Shown here: positions 2,655-47,356 of the stretch, in pieces
How positions within the stretch are numbered: position 1 is the first letter of the stretch
How the letters are laid out: each line of letters opens with the position of its first letter
Assembly (NCBI GenBank): GCA_001938485.1
Contig: MQRK01238907.1
Span: 1 to 49,317, forward strand
Source: Girardia tigrina
Taxonomy: Eukaryota
DNA length: 49,317 bases
Direction: 5' to 3'
Made by a program: the position numbers and the translations under genes
Notes under the pieces: generated by a model
Told to the model about the DNA's origin: nothing
The model's database searches: none
Seen by the model: only the letters and a program-made list of their open reading frames with translations

Positions 2655-3434
2655 GGTGAATACTATTAGACTTTCTATATACAGGACGAGAACCTTCGCT
2701 AGTAATTTGATCACATAATTCTTAAACAAATTTATGGATATTATTAAATCCAGTTTTTTATGTGATAAAAAAGATACATTTTTCCTTAAATATGTACAGA
2801 ATTTCCTATAAAATAATTTCTTCCAAAAATAAGATTATTTTTTTATTTTCGGAATTTAGTAACTAAATGATTATTCTGGAATTTTAATTAATAGAAAAAA
2901 AACACAATTAATCGTTTACTTATTTTAGATTATTAAAATCTTAAAAACAAAAAATAATTCATTAAAATTTATTTCCAAAGTCAAATATTTGATTGAATAA
3001 AATTTTAGAAATAACCATAACCTTAATTATTATCAATTTACTTATTCAATTAATTTTAAAAACAATTTATCCTTAAAAAATCAAAAATAGAGACGATTTT
3101 CATTGACTTTCTATTAAAATATATTTTTTAAAATTATTTTTTTATGTAATATTTAATTAAAAAACATACCATAAAATTATTAAATTACAATAATAAAATT
3201 AAAATTATTTAAAAAGAATACTGAGAATAATTCTTAATAAATATATTAAAATTCTTTTAATTAGATTAGATTTACAATTAGACATTTTACAATTTTTTAA
3301 AAATTTATTTTTAATTTTTGTGTCATTTAATTAAAAAAAATAATTAATTAAAATTAAAAATTATTTTAAATATTAGTCAGAAGATTTGTTTAAATAAAAT
3401 AAAGAAACCACATTAAAAACATTTTATTAATTTA

Positions 3435-11591: not shown

Positions 11592-13805
11592 TTAGGTTGG
11601 TCGAAAAATAATGGCAGTTTTTGAGCTTTATACTTTGTTTATCTACTTTGATATGTATATAAGTTTAAATGCATTAGTGTTAGATATTATTTGAAATCTT
11701 ATGCCTAGCTGTATATTCATATAGCCATTATTAACATATTGCTGTTATTTTTTTAGAATATTTACGGTGCTAAATTAATAATAGAAAAATAAAAATTCAA
11801 GCAATTTTCTTGTACAAATTTAAACTGGGTCTTAAAGCAGCAGAAACGGTTCGCAATATCCATAAAGCGTTTAGCAAGGGAACAGCTTCTGAGCGCACAG
11901 TGCAACGATGGTCCGAAAATTTTCTGATGGAGATTGTAGTGCTCTACTTACTGACACTGCGTGATTATTTTATTTGCATGTTCTTTGACCTTTGTGTTTA
12001 CTTTCGAGTGCTCTGATGTTTCTTTCGTGTTTGGACGTGTGTTTTTTTATTGTTGATTTTTTTGTTGGTCTTTTATTTCGTGTAGTGGTGTGAATTTTTA
12101 TATTTTTTTGTTTGTGATTTGTTTTCATCTGAGCGAGTTATAAAGTGATTTTGGTCATCGACAGTTTAATCATGTAGCCGACGATCGTTAAATCGGCCAG
12201 TTGGAATGTTTATTTCGAATTTAAAAATTAGTGGAAAAGACACAAGAAATGATGTTAAGGTTTATAATAAAAAAACCATGGTTATGTTACAAAAGTTAAT
12301 CAGTTATTTCGATAAATTTTTCCCTAGTTCCAGTACTTTAAAGTTACTTTATGACAGTAGGGGTTCTTTATTTGATGGTGTTGAAAAATGTCAAAATTGT
12401 AGCTGTTATTCAAAATCGAGGATCAAATTCTATGTCTACATTATTATGTTTACAGAAAACGAATTTTAATTAACAAGTTGTAAAAAATAGATATCATAAA
12501 CATTGAGAATTATTTGTTTTTGGTTCAAAGCAAGAAGCCGTTGGAATTAATAATAATAAAAATCTGATTCAATAATGCAATCAATAAATTCAAAACTTAA
12601 TATATCTATGACTTACGGAATATATCCTACTGCTCATGTAATTATTTCGTTCTCTATTAAACATTGGTTATTTGACGTAGTTTTATTTTTTATTTTGATT
12701 AATTGTTTTTTTGTTAATTTATTTTTCTTTAACTAAGTTTACCAAAAATAAACATTATTCGTTTTGATAAACTTAGTAATAACGTAATAATTTTAGTCGT
12801 AAAAGTAGCGAATATAATAAATTGGTTAACCCATTACTTGTACAATTCGTTACTTTTACAGAGATGAAAACTTTGAAGATGAAGAAGGTCGTGGTCGTCC
12901 AGTTGCTGTGAACAACGACAATTTGAGGACAATGGTGGAAACAGATCCTCGTACAACAATCAGAGAACTTGCAGATGGGTTAGGCATTAGTCATTCAACA
13001 GTCCTGGATCATTAAAAACAACTTGGAAAAATCAAGAAACTTGATAAATTGGTTCCACATGATTTGAATGAAAATCAAAAGAACCGACGCTATGAAAATT
13101 GTCCTGCCAATCATCTTCGCAATAAAAACGATCCATTTCTTGATCGTATTGTTTCCTGTGATGAGAAATGTATCCTGTATGATAACCGACGTCGATCTGC
13201 ACAGTAGTTGGACAAAGATGAAGTACCGAAACACTTTCCAAAACAGAAACTAATACTCCGTAAGGTTATGGTGACAATTTTGTGGTGTGATGCTGGAATC
13301 ATCCACTATAGTTTCTTGAATCCAGGTGAAACAATCACATCGGAGAGGTACTGTCATGAAATTGATGAAATGCACAATTGAAAACCCTTTGTCCGGGATT
13401 GGTCAATCGAAAAAGTTCCATCATTCTTCATGATAATGCTAGACCTCATATTTCAAAAGTGCTCTTCAAAAGCTTAATGAGTTGGCCTATGAAACCCTGC
13501 TTCATCCACCATATTCACCAGACCTCTCTCCAACGGACTTCTACTTTTTCAGGCATTTGTACAACTTCCTACGTGAAAAAATTTTCAAAAACCAAAATGA
13601 TGCTCNNNNNNNNNNNNNNNNNNNNNNNNNNNNNNNNNNNNNNNNNNNNNNNNNNTGCTGATGGAATAAAACAACTTGTTTCTCGTTGGCAAAAATGTAT
13701 TGATGCCAACGGTTCATACTTTGATTAATAAACTTTTGTTTCTGTGAATTTGCACGTCTTTGAAGTTTCTGTCCAAAAACCGCCATTATTTTTCGACCAA
13801 CCTAA
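11592..13805 (+). mobile_element. Full-length but inactivated DD34D mariner (cecropia/Hsmar1-like)
   Basis: TIRs TTAGGTTGGTCGAAAAATAATGGC at both ends, TA TSD. Motifs YKFKLG.KAAET, EDEEGRGRP, VPHDL, DEKCILYDN, HDNARPH, HPPYSPDLSPTDF and RWQKCIDANGSYFD*, with stops and frameshifts. Confidence 0.95.
11935..12860 (-). mobile_element. Solo LTR (926 bp) inserted in the mariner transposase
   Basis: TGTA...TACA termini and a perfect 5-bp TSD GAGAT (11930-11934, 12861-12865). Removing it rejoins the mariner coding sequence (GD|ENFEDEEGRGRP). TATA-like then AATAAA motifs on the minus strand (~12140, ~12075) suggest the orientation. Confidence 0.88.
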
Positions 13806-16924: not shown

Positions 16925-18162
16925 CAGTCGTGGCCATAATTCACCGGCCACCCTTGCATATTAAAGAAAATTAATATTTACCTATGTGTGTGTGTGAAAG
17001 TGCATGTAAATAATGTTCTTAACCAACATCCAATAAGAATACATCTTAAGTAGCGTACCCACAATGCTATTATGATATATAAAAGTAAAATATTAACCGC
17101 ACTGCAGTAGCCGACACTCTCAGTCTTCATCAAGTCACCGGCGCCTTTGCCTATACGAAACGCTGTGGACGGTCACGTATCATATGCAAGTTGACAGACC
17201 GGGCCATTTTGAGATCTTGCAAGACCAATCCATTTACTGGTTCCCGCGCAATACAAGCTGATCTTCCAGCTAACATTGATAAATTTCCTAGTGCACGAAT
17301 CATTCGTCGACGTCTGGTTGAAGAAGAATTTCGATCGTACAAACCTGCCAAGAAACCGCGTTTATCGTCGAAGAATATTCGTGATAGGCTCGTGTTTGCA
17401 AAAGCTTTCCAATATTGGACAGGACTTCAATGGCCTTCGGTGATGTTCAGTGTAGAAACCACAATCTGTCAGAAAGGCACATGGATCAGCACGGTGCGCC
17501 GGCCGCCTGGTCACCGCTTTAGGCCACAGTACACTGTTCCCACTGTGTGGAGTGCGCCAAAAGTTATGATTTGGGGCGCAATTGCAGCCAGAGGTCACTG
17601 CGGTCTTTGGTTCTGTTCCAAGGGAACTACTATCACTTCGCCTGTGTACAATGGCATTCTTCGCGATAAGGTCCAACGTTTCTTTCAAATGCGTCAGTGC
17701 AATTATTTCCAACATAACGATGCTTCATGCCATTAATGGCGACTAAACAAAGTCTGGTTGGAAGCAAACAAGATCAACGTTCTGGGTCCATGGCCTGGCA
17801 ACTCACCTGATTTATCACTGATTGAAATTTGTTGGAGAATAGTGAAAGAAAAGATTGCTTAGCATGCCCCCACATCATATAATGACCTACTTGACGTGAT
17901 TAAACGTGTTTGGGTACAAGAGATCAACCTCGAACTCACTGACAATCTAATCGTGTCAATGCCACGCCGATTGGAAGGAGTGATTAATGCAAAAGGTGGC
18001 CACACAAAGTACTAGTGGAAGAGTGTTTGAACTGTACATCCATGTCTGTATTCTTCTTATTATTTGTATGTACTAAATATATCCTTAATACTTCGTTAAA
18101 ATATCAGTTAGTCAAAAATCTCAGTATTTCTAGGTGTGGCTGGTGAATTATGGCCACGGCTG
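16925..18162 (+). mobile_element. Tc1 (DD34E-type) transposon, degenerate
   Basis: TIRs CAGTCGTGGCCATAATTCACCGGCCAC / GTGGCTGGTGAATTATGGCCACGGCTG, TA on the right only. ORF 17191-17736 (PAKKPRLS, VMIWGAI, FQHNDASCH), then WPGNSPDL..IE and SMPRRLEGVINAKGGHTKY*. Confidence 0.92.
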
Positions 18163-18439: not shown

Positions 18440-19271
18440 CCCAGGTTTGTTCATTCCTTGTCGTTCTTTGGAATTAGGCATACCACAAACGTCTTTACAC
18501 CGTATTTTGCATAAAGATTTGAGTCTTAAGGCTTATAAAATTCAGTTAACGCACAAACTCCAGACGGCAGATCATCAACAACGTCGTGTCTTTACTGATT
18601 TGGTCCTTTAAATGCATAAAAAAGATCCGGAATTCCATCAAAAAATCACCTTTAGTGATGAGGCCCATTTGCACCTCGGTGGCTCCGTTAATTGTCACAT
18701 CTGGGGCTCAGAAAACCCAAGAGTTATTGTTGAAAAGCCTCTTTATCCTCAACGTGTGACTGTTTGGTGCGATCTTTGGTCCGGCGGGGTCATTGGACCT
18801 TACTTTTTCAAAAATGAGGCTAGAGCAACAGTTAGGGCGAATGGATTGCGCTATCGAGAAATGATTAATAACTTTTATGTCCAGAATTGGATGGTATTAA
18901 TCTGGAACACGTTTACTTTCAACAAGACGGCGCTACGTGCACATAAGCAACGAAACCATTGATCTTTTACGAGAAAAAGCTACGTGAAAAAGAAGGTCTA
19001 CGCCAGCAGCTCAGCGTCGATTCAAGATCTCAAAGATGGAATTCGTGAGGTTGTCAAGCATATAGGACAGCCACTTTGCAATTTGGTTATGGGAAATTTT
19101 ATGAAAAAGGATATGGTCCTGTAGGCGTTGACGTGGTAGTCATTTGGTTGATGTTATTTACCATTACTACCGGCATACCTTCCTCTTTATGTAATAAATA
19201 TACGATCATTTATCTTAACAAATGGATTTTTCTTTGAATATCAAAATAACACCTCTTATTGGAAAACCCTG
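18440..19271 (+). mobile_element. 5'-truncated rosa/DD41D-type Tc1-mariner element
   Basis: Peptides LHRILHKDL.LKAYKIQL, FSDEAHLHLGG, WGSENP, RVTVWC.LWSGGVIGPYFF and FQQDGA; right TIR ...CTTATTGGAAAACCCTG followed by TA. Confidence 0.85.
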
Positions 19272-19632: not shown

Positions 19633-21291
19633 TCATTTTTTTTGGGACTTTCTAAATTTACTTGAACAAAATGCCAGAAAGAGGACCAGTCCACTCGATA
19701 AAATTATTAATCCGCAAGATATGAACGGCCAATCGAAGGACTTAGTCGCATCGTATATCAGTCCGGAAAGTGGAGCTCCACATAGAAATCCCATTGCTTG
19801 AACAATAAAAAGCATACCGAGACCGTTACTGAAGTCAGAAATATCCAATATTTGAACCAACAAAACCGGCCCCAAAGTTGCATATCCGCCCATAAATATA
19901 CCAAAACCGACCGTGTAGATGACCATTAACGGGTAAAAGAACGCAACTCGACTCATAAGAACAAATAAACCGGCTAATATCAAACAAAAACTGTTCATCA
20001 GATATGTATTGACTTTCCTTGCACCTAAAATACCGAATCCGAGACGACCAAAAATATTTCCTATTCCGAGACTTGTCAGTAACCAGGTTGCCTTAGTATC
20101 TGACACATTTAGTTCAAGGGCTTTACTTTTAACATAGAGGTAAGGGGTATCGTATCCCATATAACCTAACAGGTTGGAAAGGAGAAAAAGAAGAAATATT
20201 GGTTTTCTAAACAACTTCAAATATCCACACGACTTTTTAACGTTAACGATTATAGGAGCGTCTTTAGAAACCAATTCGATATTCTTTTCACTTGTTGGTT
20301 CTATGGCAGCTTTTATTTGAAGATTACTGGCAACACTGATCCCCACCAACACAGATATGGGTACATTGACGACGTTGACTGAATTTTTATCTATTTCTCT
20401 TTTACTTAGTCTTAGGCTCCTCAGAGAATAGTAATACTTACTCGATTCATCACTTACCGATGTTTTCGAAGCTATATTAGCCATCGATATGTAATTGAAA
20501 ATATTGGAGTCCTTTGAACCGAAAACACTTGCTATTTGATCAACTGGAACGATTTCATTTTGTATTTCGATTTCCCCATTTTCTTTATTCTTTTCTTTTG
20601 CTTTCAAATTAACCGGTCGAAATGTCAAAGAACACAACACAGCAACTATATAGAAAAGACTGTAAATGACTTTACTCAATTTCCAACCGAATCTGTCTAT
20701 AAAAACTGACATTAATGGTGTTATTGCAAAGGAAGCGATTCCCGAACCACATGAAAACACTCCCATAGCGATTGGCAAACGTTTTTCGAAATACGTGGTT
20801 AAAATGACATTAATGCACATGAAAGAGAGTCCTTGGGCAAATGGAACGATGACTGATCCCGTTAGAAATGTGAACCACAATGTCGGATAGAAGTACGTAG
20901 ATGGGTAAGTTATACCCGCAACAAAAAGGCCAACTCCAGACACGACTCGATATCCGAATTTCGTGCCCAAATAACCACCCAAAGGAGCTACAATAAGACT
21001 TATGGAAGAAAAGATTGATATCATCCAACTCATTACACTAGGAGAAATTTTGAATTCTTCTATGAAGTCTTTAGTAAAGACAGCGAACGAAACGTAGATC
21101 CCCGTAATAATTATCCGAATAAACAGTGCCGAGGCCAAAACAACCCATCCCCAGCCGCCATCGGGGATGTTAGATTTGTTGTTCGATGTCAATTGACAAT
21201 TATCCGGCACGTCTTTGGCTTCTTCGTCAGTGACCTTCGATTTCGTTAGATCCTGACTTTCCTCTCCAGCCGGCGTGACTTCGATTGTCAT
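19633..21291 (-). CDS. Monocarboxylate transporter (SLC16/MCT family, MFS), 552 aa, intronless paralogue of 3435-5129
   Basis: Uninterrupted ORF with PDGGWGWVV, YFEKRLPIAMG, GNIFGRLGFG and GAPLSGLIYD; colinear with the first copy. An acceptor-like TTACAG lies 9 nt upstream of the ATG. Confidence 0.95.
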   Translation of the reverse strand: MTIEVTPAGEESQDLTKSKVTDEEAKDVPDNCQLTSNNKSNIPDGGWGWVVLASALFIRIIITGIYVSFAVFTKDFIEEFKISPSVMSWMISIFSSISLIVAPLGGYLGTKFGYRVVSGVGLFVAGITYPSTYFYPTLWFTFLTGSVIVPFAQGLSFMCINVILTTYFEKRLPIAMGVFSCGSGIASFAITPLMSVFIDRFGWKLSKVIYSLFYIVAVLCSLTFRPVNLKAKEKNKENGEIEIQNEIVPVDQIASVFGSKDSNIFNYISMANIASKTSVSDESSKYYYSLRSLRLSKREIDKNSVNVVNVPISVLVGISVASNLQIKAAIEPTSEKNIELVSKDAPIIVNVKKSCGYLKLFRKPIFLLFLLSNLLGYMGYDTPYLYVKSKALELNVSDTKATWLLTSLGIGNIFGRLGFGILGARKVNTYLMNSFCLILAGLFVLMSRVAFFYPLMVIYTVGFGIFMGGYATLGPVLLVQILDISDFSNGLGMLFIVQAMGFLCGAPLSGLIYDATKSFDWPFISCGLIILSSGLVLFLAFCSSKFRKSQKK

Positions 21292-22767
21292 TTTTCAATT
21301 CTGTAATTTTAATTTTTATTATCCGAAATAATATTTAAACAATTTTAATGTTTATAGAAAATCATTTTTTTTCAAATATTGAAACACTTAACCATCATTT
21401 TCCAGACAAAAAAACAATTATTTTCGAACTTCAATTTAAAACAAAATATATTTCAATAATTATAAAAAAATATAAAATTTAATTATTTTATTTTTAAGGA
21501 TAGAAATTAATACCCCCCAAAATTATATTTTTTCTGAATAATTATTTTTTTCACATTTATTACTTTCTTTTTTAACTTAATTATTTTATTAACTAAAAAA
21601 ACCGATATACTTTATAATGTGTAAATAGGAGAAAAGAAGGAACAGAAAATTTGAATTATAACATTATTAAAAAAATAATTTAATACGTTTTTCTGATATA
21701 TTAAAAATTATTCTAATAATATTTACATTTTATATTAGAAAATCCTTAGAGAAATTTTATTATAATAATAATTAGTAATCCTTTTTTTATAATAAATTTA
21801 TGTTTAATAATTAAATTTTAAGAAATAATATTTTCTAGTGAAAATTAATTAAATTAATTAACGGCGAAAAGTATTAAAAAATAAAAGTCTATTTTTCCAG
21901 CAAACGGAAATATCAAAGAATTTTAATTTTTCAAGAATTATTATTAACGCTTCCTCGCGACTGGTTTGTTAATATACTATCTCCTGAATAGATCCTGTTA
22001 ACGTAAATTAATTAAATGTATAATTATTAATTAATTACTTTATTTTAACATGTAATTTATTAATTAATGAATTTTTTAATATAAAAATGTAAAAAAAATG
22101 AAATGAATGAACTTCAGTACAGACATTTTATCATACTGGTGGCGAGAAGAAGTATTACGTAACACCAATCACACTGAGTTAATACACACACGTATACACG
22201 CACACATGGAGGGTCGAGTTCACAACTGTCAATATACTTATTACGTCATATGTAATTATACTACTTGCGAAAAATAATAATTTTATTAATAAATTAAATT
22301 TTTGAAACAATTTTATCAATAATTAAAACTTACTGTTGGTTCCCCAAAAGAATGAAATAACATTTGGGAATACGTTCAGTAACTTTGTTTATATATAATT
22401 ACATAATGTTATGCTAGACACAAAGCGTTGTTATTATTTCTAAGAACGATTGTTAATGATGGTATAATGTAAATAAACGGCAAGTTTGTCGTCATTATGA
22501 GACCACGTCACGTGGGTTGGCAAATATTAGTCTCGATTTGCGTTGGAAGTTAAGGTTACAATCCTTTGTAAAGGTTATATAATACTTATTATCATATAAT
22601 CTTATCAAATATTCATGCACTCTCAGACCTCGTAAATAGTAGGCGGTCGAAAACAGAAAGTACGACATCAATTTATTCCTGTTACTTTTGAAAAAACCGT
22701 GAATAAAAACTATCAAATGATAATCAATTTTAAATAAATCGATTTTATTCCTTAAAATGATATATAT

Positions 22768-23146: not shown

Positions 23147-23849
23147 ATTAAAACTAGAAAATTTTTTAACAATATTTTGATCCCGAATTCTAATCATGTT
23201 TGTAGTTGAAGTTTCAATTAATATTAATTTTCCTTCAAATATTATAATTTTCTTGTGAAATATCTTCGTTAGTTATATTTTAATATAATCTTTAATAGCG
23301 TTTTTTACGTCATAATTTGTCTTTATTTCAAGTTTTAATGTTGTAAAAATTTTTTTGGAATATATTTCATTAAAAGATACCATTATTCAAGGGAATTAGG
23401 GTTAGGCCTAGGGGAGGGTTGTTAATTTCTACCTAAGTAAACAAATAGAATAAGGTTCTTTATCCTTGCAAATGTTACAAAGATTGAACTTTGATAGATA
23501 GATCATCTTCATCAATTTCAAAAGATGAATTTTTTATTCTTCAGAAGAATTTCGATTAACATTATCATTAGCGAATCATTACTAATAAGACACTACAACA
23601 CATTGATAAACATCCAAAATGGAAAAAAGTAAAGAAGTCTCTATATTAAATATCTTTAAATAAAATGAAAATATTAACCAGTTAAATTGAGATTTTATAT
23701 TATTTTTCTTAGAAAAATTCCTTATATATGATTAAAAATTAAATAAACTATTAAAATTAAAAAAAAAAGTTAATACAACACAAATAAAGTTACTGAAGGT
23801 GATCAAAAATTGTAATCAAAATATATTTATTCTATAAATAATTAATATA

Positions 23850-24480
23850 CCGTGCGATTCATAAGTCGTCATCTCAAGATATGGAACTATACTGCGATGT
23901 AATGTAAAACTTTTTGAATATGATATAAATGCATTACGACATGGTTTTTTACGCAGTACAACTTGAAGACATGAAAAGAAAAAGGTTTTACAATAATTGT
24001 TCAAAATGTTCACCATTTTTCTGCAAACACAGATTGCATCGCTCCACAAAATTCGTGTAACATTTTCGAATGATGCGGTGATCGATGTCTGACAGCACTC
24101 TTGAAATGGCGCCTTGTAGTTCATCGAGGTTCAGATAGTTATTTTCGATGGCGTAAACTCGATCTTTGACGTAACTCCATAGCCAGAAGGCAGGTATCGT
24201 CAAATTTGGAGACCGAGGTGGCCATTCCTGGGGTACTCTACGACCAATCCATCTTTGTGGGAAATGTTTATCCAGCCACGTTTGCGCTGCAATGCTGAAA
24301 TGCGGAGGTGCGCCATCATGTTGATACCAGTGTTGCGTGTTATCCCCAACAAAAGGCAGCAACCTTTGATTCAGAACGTCGACATATCGTACCTGGTTCA
24401 TTGTTTCAGGTATAATACTGAAAGTTATTCCAAGGTCGTAGGAAACAGCTGCCCAAACAGTTAATCCCGGCGAGATAAAG
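23850..24480 (-). mobile_element. rosa/DD41D transposon 3' half
   Basis: ORF 23988-24608 contains HDGAPPHF...WIGRR...WPPRSPNLTIPAFWLW, with exactly 41 residues between the second D and the (mutated, A) third catalytic position. It ends NGEHFEQLL*; probable terminus CCGTGCGATTCATAAG after TA at 23848-23849. Confidence 0.88.
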
Positions 24481-24944
24481 ACGTATTTCAATCGCGAAAT
24501 ATTCACGCATCTGTTACTTATCACAATGTCATCGATGCCACACGAAGAGTAACTACTGAACAATCTGAAAGAACAGAGAAAATCATAGGCCCAACACAAA
24601 ATTTTCAAATCATGTGTTAACAGTTGGTATCCTTCTTACTTGGTTTATCAAACACAAACAAATACATATTGTGAGTAAATTTCGATTTACCTCTATTACT
24701 TAAAATATTATCAAACAAAAAATTTCAAAATTACATTTTAGAAATATTACCTATTACAAAAAATTTAAAATATTTTAACAAAATATAATTTATTAAGTTT
24801 ATTTATTATTAGTCTTAACTTTTTTTAAAAATAAAATGTATAAATAAGTAATAAATTTTGTAAGCCATTATAAATTTGATTACCATAATTTAAAATTATT
24901 TATTATTAGCCTAAACTTTTTTTAAAAAGTCTAAAAAATTTAAC

Positions 24945-25951: not shown

Positions 25952-27039
25952 AATATTATCTGTTTATCTATTTTTTAGATTTTTTTTACAAAAGAAACAC
26001 AAATTTAAGTATTTTTAACTAAACAAAGTACATAAAAAGTAAACAAAATTTATTCGATTGTAAAAAAATAAAATAATGTCAATTATTATTAAAGAAATGA
26101 AAGAAAAAAATTAATAAAAAAAATTGCATTCTGCAAATTAATTTCTCTAGAAGAAGTTATTAATAATTTAGTATAATTTTGAAGGTTTTTTTTAAATTTG
26201 CTTTACTTTATTCTTCATAAAAATAAATATCTCACGATTATAATATATATTTTAAAAATAATTTTAAATTGAAATATAAATTAATAATTTTATTTTAATA
26301 TATACAGAAAAAGCTTTCTATAAAGTACATTCTTTTTTCAGGATATTTTAAAGATACGTACCTTAAAAAAATGTCGTACCATATAAAGTTCTTTATAAAA
26401 CATAATAATTTAAGCAGGGAATAATATTTTATCGTGAAAATTATAAAACTTGGGTATTAAAAATTATGAACTCTGATGTAGCAATTATAATTATCATGCT
26501 CATAGCACGTAATTTACAAATTGTTTCCCTTTAAGTCATTTTGCAAGTGTTCTTAAATACTCAAGATTTAGTTCTTTGTAAAAACGGTTACTTTTTTACT
26601 TTTATTTTGCTTCTGAAGCGTCAATAAGTTACCCTTCGTTTCAAGTAAATGTAATTCCACATCTTTCATTTTCATATTTTAATTTGAATTTAAAATAATT
26701 TTCAAACGGCTGTTTAGTTAAACAAATCGATTTTTATATTCTTTTTATATGTACAAAATATCTAATTTTAAATTATGTGATTTTTTTAATTGTGACCACA
26801 ACCATATCAGTCAAATATTTCATTGTCTTATAATTACTAATTATTTGCTATGTATTGAATCCGAGAGTTGCAAAAAAATCCACAATCACGAGACCAAGAA
26901 ATATTAAAATTCCATTTCCAGAAGGATTTAGAAAATGTAAAAATATCAGTAATGTTAACTTTTTAAAATATCAATAATGTTAAAATAGTGTCAGTAATAA
27001 ACTAAAGTGAGATACTGCCTTAAAGTGAAATTCAAAACT

Positions 27040-27150
27040 GACAATACAGTCAAAGCTAATCTTGTGTACAAATTTACTTGTTATTGGGCGTCAAAACTCG
27101 TACGATAAAATAAAACTGAACGATATGAGACCAGGATCGAAAGCAACTGA
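27040..27150 (+). mobile_element. Penelope-like GIY-YIG endonuclease remnant
   Basis: KANLVYKFTC followed by KTER..TRI resembles the PLE endonuclease motif NVVYKFTC...GKT.R.L.TRI.EH; heavily decayed. Confidence 0.5.
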
Positions 27151-31128: not shown

Positions 31129-31161
31129 GATGATTTTTTTAAAAATCGAAACATGTCCAAT
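31129..31161 (+). ncRNA. Minimal type-I hammerhead ribozyme, 5' part lost in an assembly gap
   Basis: ..GA-T-GATTT(TTTTAA)AAATC-GAAA-CATGTC-CAAT; the downstream ~70 bp are nearly identical to those after the 36719 copy. Confidence 0.7.
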
Positions 31162-31889
31162 AGTTGTATTAAAAAAGCTTTAATCAAATTATATTTTCGA
31201 AATACTAAACTTGCGTTCACAAGACTCAATAATATATATGTATATATGTACAATATAATATATATGTACAATGTACATATATAATTAAGACTTTGTGTAA
31301 CGTGTCTGAATAAATTAAGTGATTTCGTCAATAAAGCCTCACAAAAAGTGACTCAACATTTTTCTTAATTCTACCCGGTATTTTTATTTATAAAACAAGT
31401 CTACATATTTCATTCATATATCAATATCAATACCATTACCCAACTGTCTATGTTCTTGTATCTGTTATTAGAGAGGGTACAAAACTGATTCTTTAATTTA
31501 TGAGACGTTGCATTTATTGCAAGTGAAAAATTAAACTAAAATAAATTGGAAATTTGTTAGAAAATATATTTTAATTTTGTAAGATTCGGACATCTTTTTT
31601 AAATTTCGAGTTTTATGAAATAATGATTTTAAAATAACAGATTAAACCTTTTTGAAGCTATCAAATATGAATCATTAATTTTATTTAGTCTTAGACTCTT
31701 AACTGGTTCTTTTATCGAGCTTATTTTCTCTTGGGACGCATAAAGTTTTATTAATTATTTTACCCATCGTTTTTAAATAAAAGATTTGGAATCTTCGTTT
31801 TGATGCTAAAGTTAAATTAACATATTAAATTTATTTCATACCTTCCTATACCTATTTAAATCACCTTAAAGTTAATTACTTTACAAATA

Positions 31890-32184
31890 CACTATATCCT
31901 TTTTTACACGATTATCGGTTCCTGAAAGTCATCGAGTTAAAAAAGATACAATTTACATTAAAATAAATCATATGTTGGTAAATCATATATTAAAACAAAC
32001 ATCCGCATGTGAGTTAAAAATGAATAAATGATTTAATTTGACGAATAAAATCTTAATAAGTATTAAAGTGAAATTTTTTTTTATAGTGAAATCGCGTAAA
32101 AGTGGTAAAAATCTCGTTAAAAAAGAATTTGTGCCGCAATATCAAATCGCATAAAAGTGAATTCGCGCAAAAAAGGATAAGGTG
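31890..32184. mobile_element. pogo/Tigger-like MITE
   Basis: Imperfect TIRs CACTATATCCTTTTTTACACGA / TCGCGCAAAAAAGGATAAGGTG with TA on both sides; subterminal AAATCGCGTAAAAGTG repeats. Confidence 0.7.
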
Positions 32185-32517
32185 TATATGTTTTTAGTAC
32201 TTTTAATTTGCTTGGTGTTATGTGGATTATATATGTGAGAAGTGGTTGCAACCTCAATATCAGGATTCATTTTTTTAACACCAAAATTTTATTTATATAA
32301 CAATTCACATATTTAAAACAAATTTTCCTGTTAATTTAATTATCTCGATCCAAATTAATCTATTAAATTATTTTCGATTTAATTTTTAAAATCCTGAAAA
32401 TTTATTTCAAAAATTATTTAAACTTTATTTTCAAAATTTATTTCAAAGTTTATTTAAGATTGCTTATTAAAAATATTTTGATTTATAAATAAATATTTAA
32501 TATTTTTGTTTTCTTGA

Positions 32518-32823
32518 CATTTTTAATTTTAAGATATTTAATAGAGACATTAAAAGATATTTTTTATTTTTAAATAGGTATTTTATTTTTTATGATTTTC
32601 TTTTATTATATCATTTTTAATTTTTTTAAAATACTTAAAAACACATTAAAAAATATTTTATTTTTAAAAACGTTTTTGATTTTTTAATAGTTGTTTTATT
32701 ATATCATTTTTAATTTTAAAATATTGAATAAGCATATTAACATAGAAATATTTTACCCTTTAAATTAAAAAATAATAAATTATTCAGGCGAGATAAAAAA
32801 TTTAAATTAAGCCCTCCTAATAT
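32518..32823 (+). repeat. Degenerate ~93-bp tandem repeat; last unit and its flank also present at window 1-116
   Basis: Units start CATTTTTAATTTT at 32518, 32612 and 32705. 32712-32823 aligns with 1-116 (ATATTTTACCCTTTAAATT...TATTCAGGCGAGATAAAAA). Confidence 0.7.
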
Positions 32824-33222
32824 ATAAATGATTCTATTCCCGGGAAAATGAGACTAGGAAAAAGAGACCTAAAAAATAAAGAATATAAATGACTTAATAT
32901 ATTTTTAATAATGTTATACTATTTACAAATTTATTAGTAGATATAGCTGTAATGTAATTAATTAAAATTATTTGTTAAAATTTATTCATTATTTATTTAC
33001 ATTTTTTTATTTTTTAATCGTAAGGTTCATGGTAACCGTGGTCGTCATATTAGGCATATTAAAACACAGAGTCTTTTTTGAAGAATTATTAATAATAAAA
33101 TGGTTCGTAATTAGTGGCTGCGATATGACTTGTGAATACCTAATAGTACTATAAACGCATTAACACATCACTGAAACATAATTCACTACTTATTCAAATA
33201 TCCCTCACACAGCGTACTGCAG

Positions 33223-34119
33223 TTTTGATGATCATCGTATTTACATTACCATAACCGCAAAAAGAAATGACGGAAAGTAGAGGTAAGGAAGAATGAGACT
33301 ACGAAGAAAGAGATAAGAGAAAACAATGGTCTTATCTTAAATTATCCTTTTGCATCATCTTTGTTGTCCTGGTATCATTCTTCATTTTACCAAGTGATTC
33401 GTATCGTCACGTTTATCAATTTTAGAGGGTAAATCCAGTCCCAAATAACCATGTATTAAAAAAGTTTTCTGTATATCAAATTAATTTTTAAAATAATGTA
33501 ATTTCTAAAAAAAATGAATATTTTGTAAAAGATCGAATTATTAAAGAGTTGACTATATGTAAAAATTAGCCTTTAAAAAATAATTTAATTTCTGTAAAAA
33601 AAGGAATATGTTTTTAATAGTTTGAATGATTAAAGAAGTTTATTTTTAAGAAAATTAATTTATAATAGAAGTTACAAAAGTAAGATGAAATAAAAGACAA
33701 ATTGGGATTTAATTTCCTTAAAATGTCTAATAATTGGTTTACTAATTAATAATGTTTTACTAATTAAAACGATTTTTTTAATAAAATGAACTATTAAAAA
33801 AGTTTTCTGTATATCAAATTAATTTTAAAATAATGTAATTTCTATAAAAAATGAATTATTAAAGAGTTTACTATATGTAAAAATTAGCCTTTTGATGATC
33901 ATCGTATTTACATTACCATAACTACAAAAAGAAATGACGGAAAGTAGAGGTAAGGAAGAATGAGACTACGAAGAGAGAGATAAGAGAAAATAATGGTCTT
34001 ATCTTAAATTATCTTTTTGCATCATTTTTGTTGTCCTGGTATCATTCTTCATTTTACCAAGTGATTCGTATCGTCACGTTTATCAATTTTAGAGGGTAAA
34101 TCCAGTCCCAGATAACCAT
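33223..34119 (+). repeat. Nested direct duplications A-B-x-B'-A'
   Basis: A 33223-33452 matches A' 33890-34119 (230 bp, few substitutions). B 33454-33573 matches B' 33792-33892 (one internal deletion). Confidence 0.92.
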
Positions 34120-34913
34120 TAGCAGATGCACTAATCTTTTTATTGACTTATAATAAAAATATTTTTTAATGTTGTTTTTAAAAAGCTTTTATTAAGTCAC
34201 TAAATATTTTTATTAATATATTTTCAAATAAATTTTATTCCTTTTAAAATTAATTAACTAAAAATCCCATTTAAAATTTAAATATAAATCATTAATTTTT
34301 CATTATGGAACTGAACAATTGCATTTGAATGGAGATACTGCTCAAAATTAGGAAATTAATGATGGTAATGGCGAGTCAAGCGCAATTAAAGATGAATTCG
34401 GACAGACAATGTTAAAGAACACTTAACAAATTTCGGACTTAGTGAGCCATCCTTAATATTACACTTCAAATTTTAAGTAAATTGTTGAGAGTTATTTTTT
34501 AAATAGTATTCAGAAACAATACTGATTAATAAAAATGCCAAAAATAGTTAAATTATTAAATTTGGGGACGCATCTTCTTTTTTAAAGGTATTTTACGAAC
34601 AAATTGAAAGAGAACATTGTTGTGCGATTTAAATTACATTTTGTTTTAAATTTTCTAGATTGTTTTTTTAATTTTAGAGAAATCTAACGTCAAAAACAGG
34701 AAAATAAAACCGACGAATTTTGCAACGATATTCGACAAGAGATTAGTCAATTATCAGATTACACGAAGCACTGCTTCTTCTTTGATATCGGCAAAGTCGA
34801 CTCGAACGACATTAAAATCGAAATTATTGAAGAAAATCCGAGAATCTCTAATATCTCCGTCAATTCCCGAATCGAAAACCAAAGGTGAAAGACAAATGAT
34901 CGAATTCTTGCAG

Positions 34914-35102
34914 ATGCACCCAGATACTGGCATCTCCGGCGAAGCCATGTCAAACATGAACAATTTCGTGACCGATGTTTTTGAGCGGATTGCAAGTGAG
35001 GCTCGTCGATTGGTGCATTGCAACGAGAAGTCGACGATCACGAGCAGAGAGATCCAGACGGGAGTGACACTGCTGCTGTCGGGAGAATTGGCTAAGAACG
35101 CC
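34914..35102 (+). pseudogene. H2B: Histone H2B fold fragment embedded in a longer ORF
   Basis: [63 protein letters not shown] aligns without gaps to H2B VHPDTGISSKAM...REIQTAVRLLLPGELAKHA. The canonical N-tail/alpha1 and the end of alphaC are absent. Confidence 0.9.
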
Positions 35103-35122
35103 ACAAATTGTGAAAGAAATAA

Positions 35123-35138
35123 GACCCTCTTTAGGGCC
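35123..35138 (+). promoter_or_regulatory. Degenerate histone 3' stem-loop
   Basis: GACCCT-CTTT-AGGGCC with A-rich flanks ~20 nt after the H2B homology. One stem mismatch and a variant loop relative to the canonical GGCCCT-TTTC-AGGGCC. Confidence 0.65.
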
Positions 35139-36119
35139 AAAATTGGTGATTGGACAGTAAATGCAGGTGATAAAAATTTCGATAAACAGAAATCGAAAAT
35201 AAGACACGAGATGAGGAACTCTGGGCGTGACTTCCGTGCTCAACGTGCTGCTCTGCGATCACCTGTGTTACCACGATTTCTGATCATCTTCAGCAACTAT
35301 TTGTGTTTTGTCATTATTAAAGGTTCTCGGGACATCGTCGGAATTATTACTATGATATATTTCTGACATCTAAACTTTTATTATACCACACAAATAAAAT
35401 GTTTAAATCTAATATTTAAATAAACTTATTATTTTTTTAGAAACAATTTGTTTTATAAATCTTAAACCGATATAAAAATACTTATAAATATTCATATTTG
35501 ATTTTTTCATTACTTATTTATAAATCAATTTTAAATTACGATAAAATTTTAAAATATTTAATCGTTTCATTTGTTTTAATTTTTTTTAAAATCGTTCCAC
35601 ATAAAAATTATACATTTTATTTTTAATATTATATTAAAAACTGTCAAAAATTTTTTATTATTAGCAATTTAATTGATCTTCTTAATTTTAGTAATTTTAT
35701 TTTTTCAAACGTTACATATTTAATTATATAAAATTTTTAATTTGTACATATTTAATATAACCATCTTTCAAAAAATTTTCATATCATTTTTAATTCCTAA
35801 TAATCGTTATTTGTGTTGCATTAATTTTAATAATTTAAATCATTTTTTTAAAGTATATATGGTAATAAATAATATTATTAAAGTTTAATTTTATTGGTTT
35901 ATATAAACATTAATTTAATTTAATTTATTTAAAGATATTTAATATTGAGGCTGCTTTTATTTTCCCATTTTGGATATTGATCAGTGGGTTAAAGTGTACG
36001 ACATTGAATTTAAAAAAAAATGCTTTAAGAGATATCTATTCAAAAAATTTCAAATTTCATTGTGAACGCAAGTTTAATATTTTGAAAATATAATTTGATT
36101 AAAGTTTTTTTATATAATT

Positions 36120-36161
36120 ATTGGACATGTTTCGATGTTTATAGACATCCTCATCAGCAAT
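36120..36161 (-). ncRNA. Minimal type-I hammerhead ribozyme
   Basis: Minus strand: ATTG-CTGATGA-G-GATGT(CTATAA)ACATC-GAAA-CATGTC-CAAT. Intact core, 5-bp stem II, palindromic ACATGT stem III, GUC triplet, 4-bp stem I. Confidence 0.85.
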
Positions 36162-36718
36162 TTTCGGATATTTAGTATATGAATATAAAATTTTTTTAAT
36201 AATACAATTTTAAAATGTATATTAACTTTAAAAGGAATATTTAGAATTAAATATAATAATTTATTAAAGTATTATTGGGTAATAATGGCAAAAAGAATAT
36301 TTTAATTAAAAATTTTAAGTATTGAAATAACTTTACTTTGCCCATTCTGAATGTTAATTGATCGGTTAACCTATTTTATTAAAAAACAAATTAAAAAAAA
36401 ATTTATCTTCGAATGATTTAAAATCAAAAAAAATCAAAATTGAATAAAATAGCATATTTATATATTTATCGATATTATTATTTATATTTAGAATTTTGAG
36501 ATCTGGATTATGTAATTAAAATATTGTTCCTCATAAATTTGTTTCAATAAGGAAAATTGTAGTAGAAATAAAGTTTACAAAATTATGAATTCCAATTTTA
36601 AATCACGAATTTTAATTATTTAATAATAATTAATTTTTTCGTTACCTTTTAGAGTAAATGTATCTATTAAAATTGTATTATTCGAACAATTCAATATTCA
36701 TTTACTAAACATCTGAAA

Positions 36719-36760
36719 ATTGCTGATGATGATGTATGTAAACATCGAAACATGTCCAAT
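36719..36760 (+). ncRNA. Minimal type-I hammerhead ribozyme
   Basis: ATTG-CTGATGA-T-GATGT(ATGTAA)ACATC-GAAA-CATGTC-CAAT; predicted cleavage after C36756. Confidence 0.85.
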
Positions 36761-36821
36761 AATTATATAAAGCTTTAATCAAATTATATTTTCGAAATAC
36801 TAGACTTGCGTTCACAAGACT

Positions 36822-36826
<5 letters not shown>

Positions 36827-36858
<32 letters not shown>
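36827..36858. repeat. (AT)n microsatellite
   Basis: Direct reading; a second tract runs from ~30988 into the gap at 31005. Confidence 0.95.
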
Positions 36859-38883: not shown

Positions 38884-40048
38884 CCACTTCTGTGATTTGC
38901 CCTAATCCAGTTCGGGTAGGTATTTTGCTGACACAGTGATTTGCCCGAACTGGATTCGGAAAAATCATACACGAATCATACAATGCCTATAAAGATGAGG
39001 CAAAAGGATTACAAATTGTTATGCATCTGATGAAACCCATATTGCATTTAGGACATTGTCTTACCACAGACAACTTTTATACCTCACCGAGACTCGCAGA
39101 TATTTTATTAGAACATTACACGGACACATTTGGCACAATGCGATTGAATAAAAAAGAGGCTCCAAAAGAATTTAAAAATAAAAAACTAAAGAAAGGAGAA
39201 ATAATAGCATACCAGAGAAGAAAAGTCTGCATTATGAAGTGGAAAGACAAAAAAGATATTACCTTGTTATCAACCATATTTATCAACCAGAATTTATAGA
39301 TATAGAAAGAAGAACAACAACAAAAATACCCAGAGTAATCAAAGATTATAATAATTCAATGGGTGGTGTAGACAGGGTTGACCAACATCTAACAAATTAT
39401 CCGATAATAAAAAGCGTGGGAAAAAGTTTTATTATAAAATATTTTTGCATTTATTAGATCAAACGATATGGAATTCTTACGTTATTTATACGAAGTGGGG
39501 GGCATGAAAACCCACTTGCAGTTTCGATTGGATCTAATTGAAGAAATATTGGAGAAATATGCGACAACAGAAGAATATCTTGGACGTCAATCCTACATAC
39601 CACCCACATCGCGATTATTGGAAAGGCATTTTTTGGAATACATACCCCAAACGGCGAAAAGAGATAAACCTACCAGAGAGTGCAAAGTTTGTTGCTCGCG
39701 GAAGGACGCGAAGGGCAAAAAAATAAGAAGATAAACCCGAACCTACTGCGCTGATTGTAATGTAGGGTTATGTCTGGAATGTTTCAAAATATTCCATACA
39801 AAAAAAGAATACTAATTTTTTATGTAAGTTTCAGTTTTTAGGTAATGTTTGATGCAAATAAAATATGTTTGATGAAAATGAAACATTTTTTTTCCTTTGT
39901 CCTTTGATTTTTTTTCTCTACTAATATTGTTTATTTATGTTTTATACCTATTTATTATATTTCAAAATATGATAAAAAAACATAATAGTGAAAAAAAAGG
40001 GTGGCTTTTTTGACCCACTTTTTTCCAAGAGGTTGACCACAGAAGTGG
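38884..40048 (+). mobile_element. Internally deleted piggyBac transposon
   Basis: TTAA TSDs and 11-bp TIR CCACTTCTGTG. Frame-shifted transposase C-terminal half: TDNFYTS, GTMR, WKDKKDI, YNNSMGGVDRVDQ, and a Cys-rich tail RECKVC...YCADCNVGLCLECFKIFH. Confidence 0.95.
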
Positions 40049-42100: not shown

Positions 42101-42901
42101 ATCAGAATCTGATCTTTCTAAAGATGAAGAAGAAGAAACCTCCCTCTTTATTGTTTGCCTCCAAATATTACAACTCTGATTTCAGGAAGTAATTTTTTTC
42201 CTATTTCAAGTATTTCCAAAAGGATATATAAAAGAAATAATGAAATAGCTTGAGAGTTTATGAGCCTCCTATCTCTTTCAATGGTATTCAGCCATAAGCT
42301 ACTTAGAGGGTCCACCCCAACTAGAAAGCACTAGCAGTCCCCCGATAGGCCTCCTACGAGGTTGTCAGCTTTCCGCTTACGATGTCTCTTAGGACCCCCA
42401 GAAAAAAAACGACCAACCATGTTTGGATGTTCCATGATTTAGCATTCCTTTGGTCGTTCCCGTAGACTTTGAACAGCCAGCGAAGGGACAGTTGAAATTT
42501 CATTTTTTCAGATAAATCCGTTAAACAGAAATTTAACACTTCTAAAGAGATCATTTCCAAGAGATTCATTGAAACATTCGTATCGATGGTCCGTACCTGA
42601 GAGTTTGCAAAACTGTTAAAACGATCAACACAGTATAGTCAACATGTTAGAGATACTCTTCATTGTAAAGTCAGCTGTTCAGAAAGTATTGATAGATGCG
42701 AATACAAGCGTCCGTCCGACGGATGATGATTTTGGAATCATGAAGAAAATCGTTTATGTACTGTAATCATTTCAGGTAGTTGTTACAGCTATCTGCAAAT
42801 GTGACGCTACTATTTTAAATTGTTTTTAAATTTAAATTATTTTTACATATTCTTAGTTTTTTTAATTTTTTAAAATATATTATCATTAATGATAATATAA
42901 C

Positions 42902-43608
42902 ATGAAGGTGGAAGTAACATTGCAGGACATAATAAACATGAAGGATACAATCTGTGAGCACCTGGAAATACTTCAAGTTTCATTTGAAAAATATTTCAAT
43001 TTGGATGAAATAACTAAAAAAGATGAGTTGTGGATTGGTAATTCTTTTCTTTGTGATATTAACTGTATCGACGACATGGATCTTGCCAAAGACGAGTTAA
43101 TTGGTTTGAAAACAAAGTCCTTGTTAAAAATGGCTTTCGATTCAAAAACTCTTGGAGAGTTTTGGTCTTCTTTAAGAGAAGCCTACCCATTGCTAGTAAA
43201 ACGAGCTATGGCAGCCATTATACCATTTGCTACGGTATATCTTTGCGAATCAGGATTTTCCACACTCGTAAAAATAAAAACAAAACATCGAAATCGACTG
43301 AATGTCGAACATGATATGCGCGTTGCTTTGTCGAAAACTATCCCTCAATTCAATCTCCTAATCAAGAAAAGCAGCAACAGCATTCACATTGAAAATTTTA
43401 TTTTCTTCAATTACAATTATTATTTTATATCCAGGAACATAAAGATATCTGTCAACAGTTATATTATTGAAATAAAAATATTTAAATCATAAAATAGAAT
43501 ATATTTTGTAATAATTGACGTTTAAACAAATTTTTTACACAGAGGGGTCCGTGACATATTTAAAATTTTTAAAGGGGTCCATTGCATCAAAAAGGTAAAG
43601 AAACCCTG
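42902..43608 (+). mobile_element. hAT Buster/Charlie (ZBED5-like) 3' fragment
   Basis: ORF 42902-43492 has the hATC dimerisation domain FWSSLREAYPLL...PFATVYLCESGFSTLVKIKTKHRNRL. Right end GGGGTCC...AAAAAGGTAAAGAAACCCTG is followed by CTCTACAA. Confidence 0.92.
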
Positions 43609-44802
43609 CTCTACAACTTTGTTTTAGTTTTTAAATGATGCACTGATGACGTATTGATTACATAATCATTAACTGCACTTGGAAATTTTTTATTCAACAA
43701 CTTGCCAGTTGTATTCAAATTTATTCACAACTATAGCATATGTTGAAAGAGTAGTTCCCAGAGTTGGACCTTTTGAAAATTTTGAAAAAAGAATTCGCAT
43801 TTACTGTTGGGAATATTACTGCACCCTGATCACGATGACTTGAACCTAAAAATCGTACTTCACTAGGAGAATCGTACTCTAGGAGACTGAAAACCATCTG
43901 ATTTATTGTGCAAAATCAAATTAAAAATTAAATTAAACATGTAAATCAATATTCACATATTTTACAAATTATTTTTGTCAATGATGAAATATGAAACATT
44001 GAAACATGTTCAATAATCAATTTCTAAAAAAAGATTTAACTATATTATTTTTTTAATTATAATTATTTTTTTTTACTTAGTAAATTTTTTATTATTTTAA
44101 GTCATTGAATAATTGATCTTTTCTAGAACTTGGAAAATTAATTTTGTAACGTATTTTTGGAACACAATTTCCTCGAAACATTAAATAATTCGATACTCTT
44201 TACTATGCTACATTTTGATGAGATTTTCTTTTAATGATTAATAAAAAAAATAATTTTAATAAAAGACAGATGAACGAATAAATTATTTAATATATTCAAA
44301 GAAAATTCTATTTATAGAAAATACCATTTTAAATGTGAAAATAATTTTCAATTTGACAATTTAATCTATTTTTCTTTTTTTTCAGTTTTAGTAGACAAAT
44401 AAACTCAAAAAAACTAAACCAAACTGAGTAAACATTTTCCATTTTCTTTTTGTCATTAAATTAATTCCAGATGAAGTTTTATTTCTTAAAAGTGATAAAC
44501 ATTTCCTCTTTTATATTTCTGTTTCAAAGTGTCTGTTGTTTTAAAGTTTTATCCATTGATTTATTAATTAAAACAAAGTCAGACAGATAAATGATGTTAA
44601 AATTTGGAAATATTAGTTGAAATTATGAAATAATTAAACAAATTACTTCATGATCATTAGTAGAAATTCATTTCGAACAGTTATTATTACACACGGTTTA
44701 TACAATTTGGAAAATACATAAACTAGTTATAAGCACATTTAAATTTATATATTAATATGCAATAATGAAAAAGATATAAATAAAACTGGAAAATCGATTA
44801 TA

Positions 44803-46761: not shown

Positions 46762-47356
46762 TAACGGATAACATGAAATAGTAGGACACCTACTATTTTA
46801 ATAGTAGGTGGAAAAAAAATTGAAAAGGCGCCCAATATTGGTTTACACCTACTATTTGGTGCTTTTGTTTTGAACTTGTCTTAAACTTGAAAAATAAATA
46901 AGAATTAAACTGGAAAAATAAGAATTTATTCATCATAGATAATAAAAGCATCATCAGTTAATATATATTAACTGATATATATTAATATATATTAACATTA
47001 ATTTAACATTAATATATATTAACATCATATTAACTGATGATGCTTTTATTATCTATGATGAATAAATTCTTATTTTTCCAGTTTAATTCTTATTTATTTT
47101 TCAAGTTTAAGACAAGTTCAAAACAAAAGCACTATCACTATGATCAGTTTCTTTTTGGGATTCCGACAAATACTTTTTTACAAAACGTTCACCATACACA
47201 TCATGTTTCGAAATATGCCATTTTTATAAATTGCTTTAAAAACGATACACCTACTATTTGATTCCACCTACTATTTTAATAGTAGGTGGAAAATTTTTTG
47301 AAAACTTCATTACACCTACTATTTCATGTCCGCCTACTATTTGATGTTATCCGTTA
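46762..47356. mobile_element. MITE with CACCTACTAT subterminal repeats and an internal fold-back
   Basis: 24-bp TIR TAACGGATAACATGAAATAGTAGG / CCTACTATTTGATGTTATCCGTTA (one mismatch); repeated palindrome CACCTACTATTTTAATAGTAGGTG. TSD unresolved. Confidence 0.85.
46859..47132. repeat. 106-bp inverted repeat with 62-nt spacer
   Basis: 46859-46964 is the reverse complement of 47027-47132, with no mismatch seen. Confidence 0.93.

Follow-up and report, generated by a model that had tools for sequence, protein, structure and literature searches.

Minimal hammerhead motifs in Girardia tigrina as probable pLTR ribozymes of truncated Penelope/Poseidon-type elements

Introduction

That Penelope pLTRs carry hammerheads is already published, and so are the palindromic stem III, the pairs on opposite strands and the tails. 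The min-HHRs of metazoan PLEs (Cervera and De la Pena 2014, PMC4209133) belong to type I and have a stem I of 4 bp, an extra base before stem II, a G10.1-C11.1 pair and a small palindromic stem III; they lie in pLTRs and occur as thousands of solo copies as well as in opposite-strand pairs 100-700 bp apart. The Girardia tigrina motifs described here resemble them in all these points, although stem II has 5 bp here and 7-8 bp in the Schistosoma families. This sequence family does not appear in the main text of that paper.

A closely similar coding element is PAc, the Poseidon of Anolis carolinensis (Frangieh et al. 2024, PMC11167929). As described there, it combines an RT with a C-terminal GIY-YIG domain, its hammerhead overlaps the start of the ORF and cuts downstream of the AUG, a tail is defined by its two 3' ends, the targets are AT-rich and uncleaved RNA is the apparent template. 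The Girardia element appears alike in each respect. It also shares with the Penelope/Poseidon EN+ PLEs (PMC8557442; Adineta Pen2, PMC3846280) a C-terminal EN with CCHH, the DKG motif and the lack of a CX2-5CxxC linker, and likewise a pLTR of ~200 nt including the first codons, a ~30-nt tail, an inverted 5' pLTR and fold-back junctions. It differs from this group in its strong (TA)n association, although it lacks the linker finger that has been proposed as the mediator.

Results and Discussion

Hammerhead motifs in the window

The window is a stretch of 49,317 nucleotides (contig MQRK01238907.1). We checked three hammerhead motifs in it base by base. The preliminary description had reported a partial copy at 31129 (+) and complete copies at 36120 (-) and 36719 (+), the complete ones with a CUGAUGA/GAAA core, a 4-bp stem I, one extra base and an ACAUGU stem III, and this holds on the sequence. 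Copy 3 (36719-36760, plus strand) is a complete minimal motif with GAAA, a stem I of 4 bp and a stem II GAUGU/ACAUC closed by a 6-nt loop. Its core CUGAUGA occupies 36723-36729 and is followed by an extra U at 36730; the palindrome ACAUGU of stem III lies at 36750-36755 and C17 at 36756, after which the cut is predicted. Copy 2 (36161-36120, minus strand) is also complete and has the same layout with G as the extra base and a different loop; here the predicted cut follows C17 at 36124. Copy 1 (31129-31164, plus strand) is partial because it begins at an N gap within the core. Its stem III is palindromic, and it is the copy with the GAUUU/AAAUC stem II, so that the reported use of GAUGU/ACAUC with two loops and of GAUUU/AAAUC in another copy was likewise correct. 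The complete motifs thus show the CUGANGA and GAAA core, NUH triplet and stems I and II of minimal type I hammerheads, together with the extra base after A9, G10.1-C11.1 and a short palindromic stem III.

These motifs are not due to chance, as a structural scan found 2 of them in the window versus 0 in 200 first-order Markov controls, and the genome contains 5,600 matches to the core, spacer and GAAACAUGUCC versus 0 for the reversed pattern. A loose core pattern discriminates poorly, with 26 overlapping matches in the window and equally high counts in 3 of 100 shuffles. Only two of the 11 CTGATGA sites in the window passed the structure test; the pair at 46951/47034 was rejected, as it sits in an unrelated 106-nt inverted repeat. 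The Rfam search that had been proposed gave 0 matches at E<=1 for the window, and monomer folding is weak (z of -1.7, -0.9 and -0.05). Both are expected of minimal motifs.

Repeat copies carrying the motifs

The motifs are embedded in repeats of 206-303 nt which the preliminary description had missed. Copy 1 (31129..31234, plus strand) is the 3' end of a pLTR of a young subfamily with a U-A pair in stem II. It is cut by the assembly gap inside the hammerhead core, is 98% and 97% identical over 106 nt to two other copies (L049, L056) and terminates in a long tail followed by an AT-rich repeat. Copy 2 (36060..36362, minus strand) is the 3' end of a 5'-truncated PLE and comprises the last ~19 codons and the stop of the GIY-YIG ORF, equally overlooked before, and then the pLTR. 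It is 88% identical to L006 and has a shortened tail without (TA)n; beyond 36367 other copies continue, as loose ends in the contig coverage indicate. The following 258 nt (36363..36620) are a spacer that does not derive from the Penelope element and has only weak AT-rich matches in the loci; its section at about 36425-36601 belongs as a fragment to a different repeat, with deep cover and loose ends at 36601. Copy 3 (36621..36828, plus strand) is a solo pLTR with a 30-nt tail, 96% identical to L006, and an (AT)16 microsatellite (36827..36858) marks its 3' junction. A decayed fourth copy (43981..44053, plus strand; 77-81% identity), also new, has a broken catalytic core.

Inverted pairs like copies 2 and 3 occur in 18 other cases, 13 of which are 89-99% alike. 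We considered copies 2 and 3 as terminal inverted repeats of a MITE and rejected this, as they are only 83% alike and of unequal length, and one includes ORF sequence. Since the two lie on opposite strands, the window's own head-to-head pair cannot supply a ribozyme dimer and would instead form a long hairpin. All copies in the window lack an ORF, and in an RNA read through copies 2 and 3 the sense sequence would anneal to the antisense one, so that they are probably inert leftovers.

The coding element

In locus L120 a 5' pLTR, the ORF start, the RT region and a 3' pLTR in direct orientation follow each other across one gap, and in L006, L014 and L023 the RT and/or EN runs into the hammerhead repeat. 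The suggested link to a PLE is therefore supported, as an ORF with RT and GIY-YIG is directly joined to the repeat in genomic loci. Pfam searches with ORF fragments gave RVT_1 (E 1.6e-6) and GIY-YIG (E 1.5e-4) with scores (28.4 vs 29.6 and 22.4 vs 22.6) that fall slightly short of the curated cut-offs; the L006 EN and the L123 RT fragment had no relevant Pfam match. There are 426 longer homologues, the best 120 of which are nearly all of 614-852 aa with an RT, and all five that we inspected end in a GIY-YIG-like domain with CxxC. Pieced together from broken copies, a single ORF encodes the RT and then the C-terminal GIY-YIG nuclease; its length of 2,487 nt comes from two copies, and none of the loci read has it intact. 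In translations the EN has a CCHH finger, two Cys of which lie between GIY and YIG, and the DKG motif precedes the RT. The linkers of L006 and L014 have two isolated Cys only, in place of the CX2-5CxxC finger between RT and EN that is among the criteria for EN+ PLE clades and is found in Neptune and Nematis (Craig et al. 2021, PMC8557442). Direct pLTRs are present, together with two optional PLE features, an inverted 5' pLTR and a tail in the 30-40-nt range. We did not find a spliceosomal intron, which some families of these elements have; contig joints near the pLTR are skips of 36-40 nt without GT..AG ends. Judged by these motifs rather than by a tree, the element appears to be an EN+ PLE of the Penelope/Poseidon type.

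The nuclease region shows a further feature. An APE-type LINE interrupts the YIG codons at a single base in 22 of the 30 copies that we looked at, and at least nine distinct 5' ends occur among these insertions. We consider it probable that the Penelope family is a dedicated target of this LINE, which carries C-terminal C2H2 zinc fingers, and that insertion into the catalytic YIG codons destroys the rival's cutting domain and uses a safe landing site of high copy number. If true, this would be a rare case of a retrotransposon that targets the active-site codons of another, and a natural 11-bp site for studying sequence-specific APE elements.

From the ORF length and an N-terminal spacing resembling that of P0007/P0008 we place the putative start codon at 36752-36754, within the stem III palindrome and two bases before the cut site; in PAc the AUG is at stem II, 26 nt before the cut. 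The reading frame of copy 3 is broken 7 codons after this putative start. In favour of this start, a second family (L135) also has its AUG within the hammerhead, upstream of the cut; against it, the putative AUG is preceded in L120 by 29 open codons without AUG.

Ends of the copies and the role of cleavage

The copies have one of two 3' end points, which are separated by ~30 nt, and most of them end in (TA)n. Among 30 motifs picked by their core only, 20 have (TA)4+ within 100 nt, 7 do not and 3 are too short. Cervera and De la Pena (PMC4209133) proposed that cleavage is a required step of transposition, by which tandem or read-through transcripts are cut into unit-length, possibly circular, templates. 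The core and the palindromes are indeed conserved across several families, and some copies begin there or close by, L210 and L211 exactly at the cut and L111/L125 4 nt ahead of it. All 5,600 counted copies span the cut site, which agrees with insertion from uncleaved RNA, but a circular template would also rebuild this site, so that the genomic copies are compatible with such processing too. However, the 3' ends fall 40-70 nt beyond an intact 3' hammerhead, and we found no excess of 5' ends at the cut: of 94 copies, 2 well-matched ones start within 5 nt of it, and a small test with one sequence variant gave 3 true junctions among 7 matches versus 1 among 3 at a control offset. Moreover, the cut would remove the putative AUG, and ribozyme mutants of the Anolis Poseidon insert normally in vitro (PMC11167929). 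We therefore regard a required processing step as unlikely. Short assembled contigs of four runs on L120 and four on the window, with the RNA status of the runs guessed, cover the repeat and also non-PLE repeats, and no pile-up of starts or ends at the repeat is listed in them. The best dimer from RNAcofold is an alternative pairing and not a hammerhead dimer.

Variation of stem II

Position 4 of stem II is G-C in 3,510 genomic copies, U-A in 975 and mismatched in 61. Covariation is thus present among the copies, as expected from the structure-preserving variation noted before, but the change in copy 1 is a single subfamily event: the difference between G-C and U-A is one subfamily split and not independent covariation. 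The covariation could be a by-product, either of one founder haplotype or of a near-palindrome repaired from a hairpin template, with the motif retained chiefly for protein binding or as context of the start codon and cleaving little or not at all. This would agree with the U-A type, which has four linked differences that turn stem II and loop into a nearly perfect T-run/A-run palindrome, and with the AUG in the palindrome of the first family. We nevertheless find it quite improbable, as other families retain the full catalytic core and the extra base with unrelated stems and with palindromes that lack an AUG (ACGCGU, AUAUAU, AUUAAU). Of six further motif types in the loci, five have a palindromic stem III, and palindromy was not used as a filter.

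The U-A copies are near-identical. The distance to a contig end is at most 53 nt for all 12 in L031-L059 and also for most of 20 further ones that we picked; their body is therefore unassembled and no ORF is seen beside any of them. This, and a 2026 preprint that derives animal non-LTR retrozymes from pLTRs (10.64898/2026.07.22.740005) and to whose hammerhead-bearing repeat the Girardia repeat is akin, would suit a non-autonomous retrozyme-like family, as had been suggested before, that makes small circular RNAs from tandem monomers and of which the U-A subfamily with copy 1 could be a derivative, yet this is highly improbable: the Girardia repeat is dispersed and is the pLTR of a coding element, ORF-less monomers in head-to-tail arrays such as define those retrozymes are absent at the window copies, copy 2 and most G-C copies adjoin the nuclease ORF, and the U-A copies resemble the coding family in both 3' ends, in junctions at (TA)n and in their fold-back 5' inversions, one of them (L192) extending into post-ORF sequence.

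Proposed mechanism

We conclude that the motifs are very probably pLTR hammerheads of 5'-truncated, nuclease-bearing Penelope/Poseidon-type copies of high copy number, likely inserted by target-primed reverse transcription (TPRT) from uncleaved RNA at AT-rich sites, with a ribozyme predicted to depend on a dimer or a protein. A matching picture has been reported for the Anolis Poseidon (PMC11167929) and the metazoan min-HHRs (PMC4209133). The element protein would nick (TA)n DNA and prime on a read-through transcript, within its first ~25 codons. AUA lies at both 3' ends and could anneal to the (TA)n repeat where it is nicked; measured from the putative ORF start, these ends are at about 45 and 75 nt, whereas PAc uses an AC-rich stem-loop at 111-118. 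Reverse transcription would usually halt early and leave stubs like the window copies.

In motifs of this type, RNA cleavage likely requires two copies to pair. Two sense ACAUGU palindromes could form a 6-bp stem III and so let the RNA be cleaved slowly, whether they belong to both pLTRs of one tandem transcript or to separate RNAs. Dimer cleavage by hammerheads has been described (Lunse et al., as summarised in PMC6765202). The cut would strip the RNA of its cap and of its sole early AUG in frame, and its likely effect would thus be to end translation of that RNA and not to shape the insert.

The family is a good test bed for the role of the ribozyme, since its copies number in the thousands, stem II comes in two haplotypes and the putative AUG lies inside the palindrome. 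As the AUG would lie within the dimerisation palindrome, cleavage or dimer formation would turn translation off.

Results

The window carries three hammerhead motifs at the positions named in the preliminary description. Motif and structure reading of the sequence confirmed that two are complete, copy 3 on the forward strand (36719-36760) and copy 2 on the reverse strand (36161-36120), and that both have, as described, a 4-bp stem I, CUGAUGA, one extra base, the GAAA that follows a 5-bp stem II with G-C closing, and the palindrome ACAUGU with the GUC triplet. Copy 1 at 31129 (+) is indeed partial, as a gap of Ns interrupts its core, and its stem II is of the U-A version (GAUUU/AAAUC). At 43981-44053 there is a fourth copy, which is decayed and whose core is broken. 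A structure-aware scan gave two matches in the window versus none in 200 Markov controls. The Rfam search that had been proposed returned no hammerhead match in the window, and monomer folding of the window motifs was no better than that of shuffles.

The motifs are embedded in a longer repeat. The proposed collection of genomic copies, with a 217-nt repeat query against the 1.43-Gb genome, yielded 2,344 first-look candidates, and among the 40 scored the identity is 94-96%. The core followed by 17 N and GAAACATGTCC has 5,600 genomic matches and the reversed control pattern none. The suspected link to Penelope-like elements (PLEs) was borne out: 5′ of the repeat, most of 29 other loci share a sequence translating to a GIY-YIG nuclease, and at one of them, L006, the upstream sequence extends back to a reverse transcriptase (RT) with YVDD. 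The Pfam scores (RVT_1, E = 1.6e-6; GIY-YIG, E = 1.5e-4) are both slightly below the cut-off. Copy 2 itself reaches 36362 and includes the final ~19 codons and the stop of the nuclease open reading frame. Genome searches with an RT fragment and an N-terminal fragment gave 150 scored matches each, and locus L120 has the order pseudo-LTR (pLTR), ORF start, RT region, gap, pLTR, with the pLTRs in direct orientation. The span between the hammerhead AUG and the stop, added up from two copies, is 2,487 nt or about 828 codons, which falls within the range of the longer homologues; no intact ORF was found among the loci read. We regard it as very likely that the window repeats belong to a PLE. Since the protein has DKG and a CxxC between GIY and YIG and is without the CX2-5CxxC linker, the motif criteria in PMC8557442 point to Penelope/Poseidon.

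The PLE copies have two alternative 3′ ends, separated by about 30 nt and lying 40-70 nt beyond the cut site. The stretch between these ends corresponds to the tail described in PMC11167929 and PMC3846280; in 5′ pLTRs the tail sequence instead continues into the ORF (three cases). When 30 motifs were chosen by core only, (TA)4 or longer lay within 100 nt of 20 and was absent from 7, the remaining 3 being too short.

Besides that of the window there are 18 head-to-head pLTR pairs, 13 with 89-99% identity. Opposite-strand hammerhead pairs 100-700 bp apart are described in PMC4209133. In the window pair, copies 2 and 3 are only 83% alike and their 258-nt spacer is partly another repeat, so that two insertions are more likely than one. 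Folded as a single RNA, copy 3 pairs lengthwise with the complement of copy 2; in this model the pair cannot form a ribozyme dimer. At locus L190, elsewhere in the genome, two pLTRs of the U-A subfamily form a perfect fold-back whose junction is palindromic, which self-priming would be expected to produce.

When the remaining stem II pairs are held fixed, 4,546 copies are counted: position 4 of stem II is G-C in 3,510 of them and U-A in 975, and 61 have a mismatch there, against about 1,570 mismatches expected under independence. This difference traces to a single split between subfamilies that was passed on to many copies, and it could have arisen by hairpin-templated change. Better covariation evidence comes from further types of motif that the fetched loci contain, in a second PLE family (L134, L135 and L141) and in L062, L070, L156 and L159; these differ in stems I and/or II. 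Although palindromy was not among the filters, stem III is palindromic in five of six such types (ACGCGU, AUAUAU, AUUAAU twice, ACAUGU), the exception being L080. The U-A subfamily is nearly uniform in sequence. Its copies almost always sit at a contig end, all 12 among L031-L059 within 53 nt of one and most of 20 further copies likewise, which explains the assembly gap beside copy 1. The second PLE family (L125-L154) has a distinct hammerhead with a 3-4-bp stem II, an ACGCGU palindrome and mostly a GUU triplet.

An insertion at a single site, one base in the YIG codons of the PLE nuclease (target L006:1123-1133), is present in five or six of the initial 29 loci. The insert is a LINE (loci L155-L188) that may be RTE-like; it encodes an APE-type nuclease (Exo_endo_phos_2, E = 1e-7), an RT (E = 5e-31) and weakly scoring C-terminal C2H2 fingers. 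A genome search with one insert gave 3,314 candidates, of which 40 were scored and 30 fetched. By alignment, the LINE 3′ end is joined to the PLE target in 22 of these 30, the query's own locus included; one further copy matches the target over 13 nt, and seven lie elsewhere, mostly at ACA or ATA. There are at least nine different 5′ ends, and in eight copies, truncated 5′ to different extents, PLE sequence is found again on the upstream side, starting at the target. Together with the 11-bp target duplication of the 3.84-kb copy at L185, these truncations indicate that the copies at the PLE target are independent insertions. Tx1 is a precedent. In the window, a related PLE has left a decayed piece of its nuclease (26899-27104, +) that ends precisely where the LINE target site lies, and two related LINE 3′ ends (42376-42261, -, 78%; 6191-6144, -, 88%) are off target and not in a PLE. 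Transposons are a known class of LINE target according to PMC4640811; our literature search found no Penelope-targeting LINE.

Other PLE families are also represented in the window by decayed fragments of the nuclease, at 23509-23666 (+, 73% at the DNA level), 40458-40363 (-, E = 4e-4) and, doubtfully, 31554-31432 (-, E = 0.8). A diverged histone H2B-like frame at 34659-35366 (+; Pfam Histone, E = 3e-7) recurs at other places in the genome and is probably a pseudogene. Two intronless major-facilitator transporter paralogues lie in opposite orientation (3417-5129, +; 19633-21294, -). An inverted repeat at 46859-47132, in which a 62-nt AT-rich spacer separates 106-nt arms of 100% complementarity, is either MITE-like or a fold-back, and a 230-nt direct duplication (33223-33452 and 33890-34119) is 97% alike. 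Seven DNA transposon fragments (8615-9007, 13369-13728, 17089-17736, 18612-18962, 23988-24635, 38940-39734, 42896-43492) include Tc3-type, piggyBac-like (DDE_Tnp_1_7) and hAT-like ones by Pfam; the others are presumably mariner/Tc1-like.

Discussion

The window hammerheads are real, ordinary and already explained; every feature of motif and setting is present in PMC4209133, and the family may already be among the motifs that its supplements list by species.

We suggest that the element nicks DNA in (TA)n and that priming is internal, at sites ending in AUA. Synthesis would end early, with frequent fold-back. The ribozyme would cut as a dimer joined through the palindrome, as proposed in PMC4209133 and the review PMC6765202. 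All 5,600 counted copies include sequence across the cut site; the RNA that was copied had thus not been cut at this point, or had been re-ligated. A search for copies that begin at the cut returned seven matches, three true junctions and four small indels, versus three matches with one true junction at a control offset. Two well-matched copies start within 5 nt of the cut among 94 bounded copies, a set biased toward intact motifs. As there is no clear surplus of such starts, cleavage does not visibly shape the inserts, as judged from the genomic copies. The element resembles in this the Anolis Poseidon, of which PMC11167929 reports that core mutants insert normally and that protein is needed for cleavage.

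The first in-frame AUG of the PLE ORF lies inside the palindrome, 2 nt upstream of the predicted cut, and no further Met follows for about 290 codons, so that the cut would decapitate the mRNA. In the second PLE family the AUG likewise lies within the hammerhead, upstream of the cut. That hammerhead cleavage switches translation off is possible, though we consider it somewhat improbable; the overlap of start codon and hammerhead is a testable feature.
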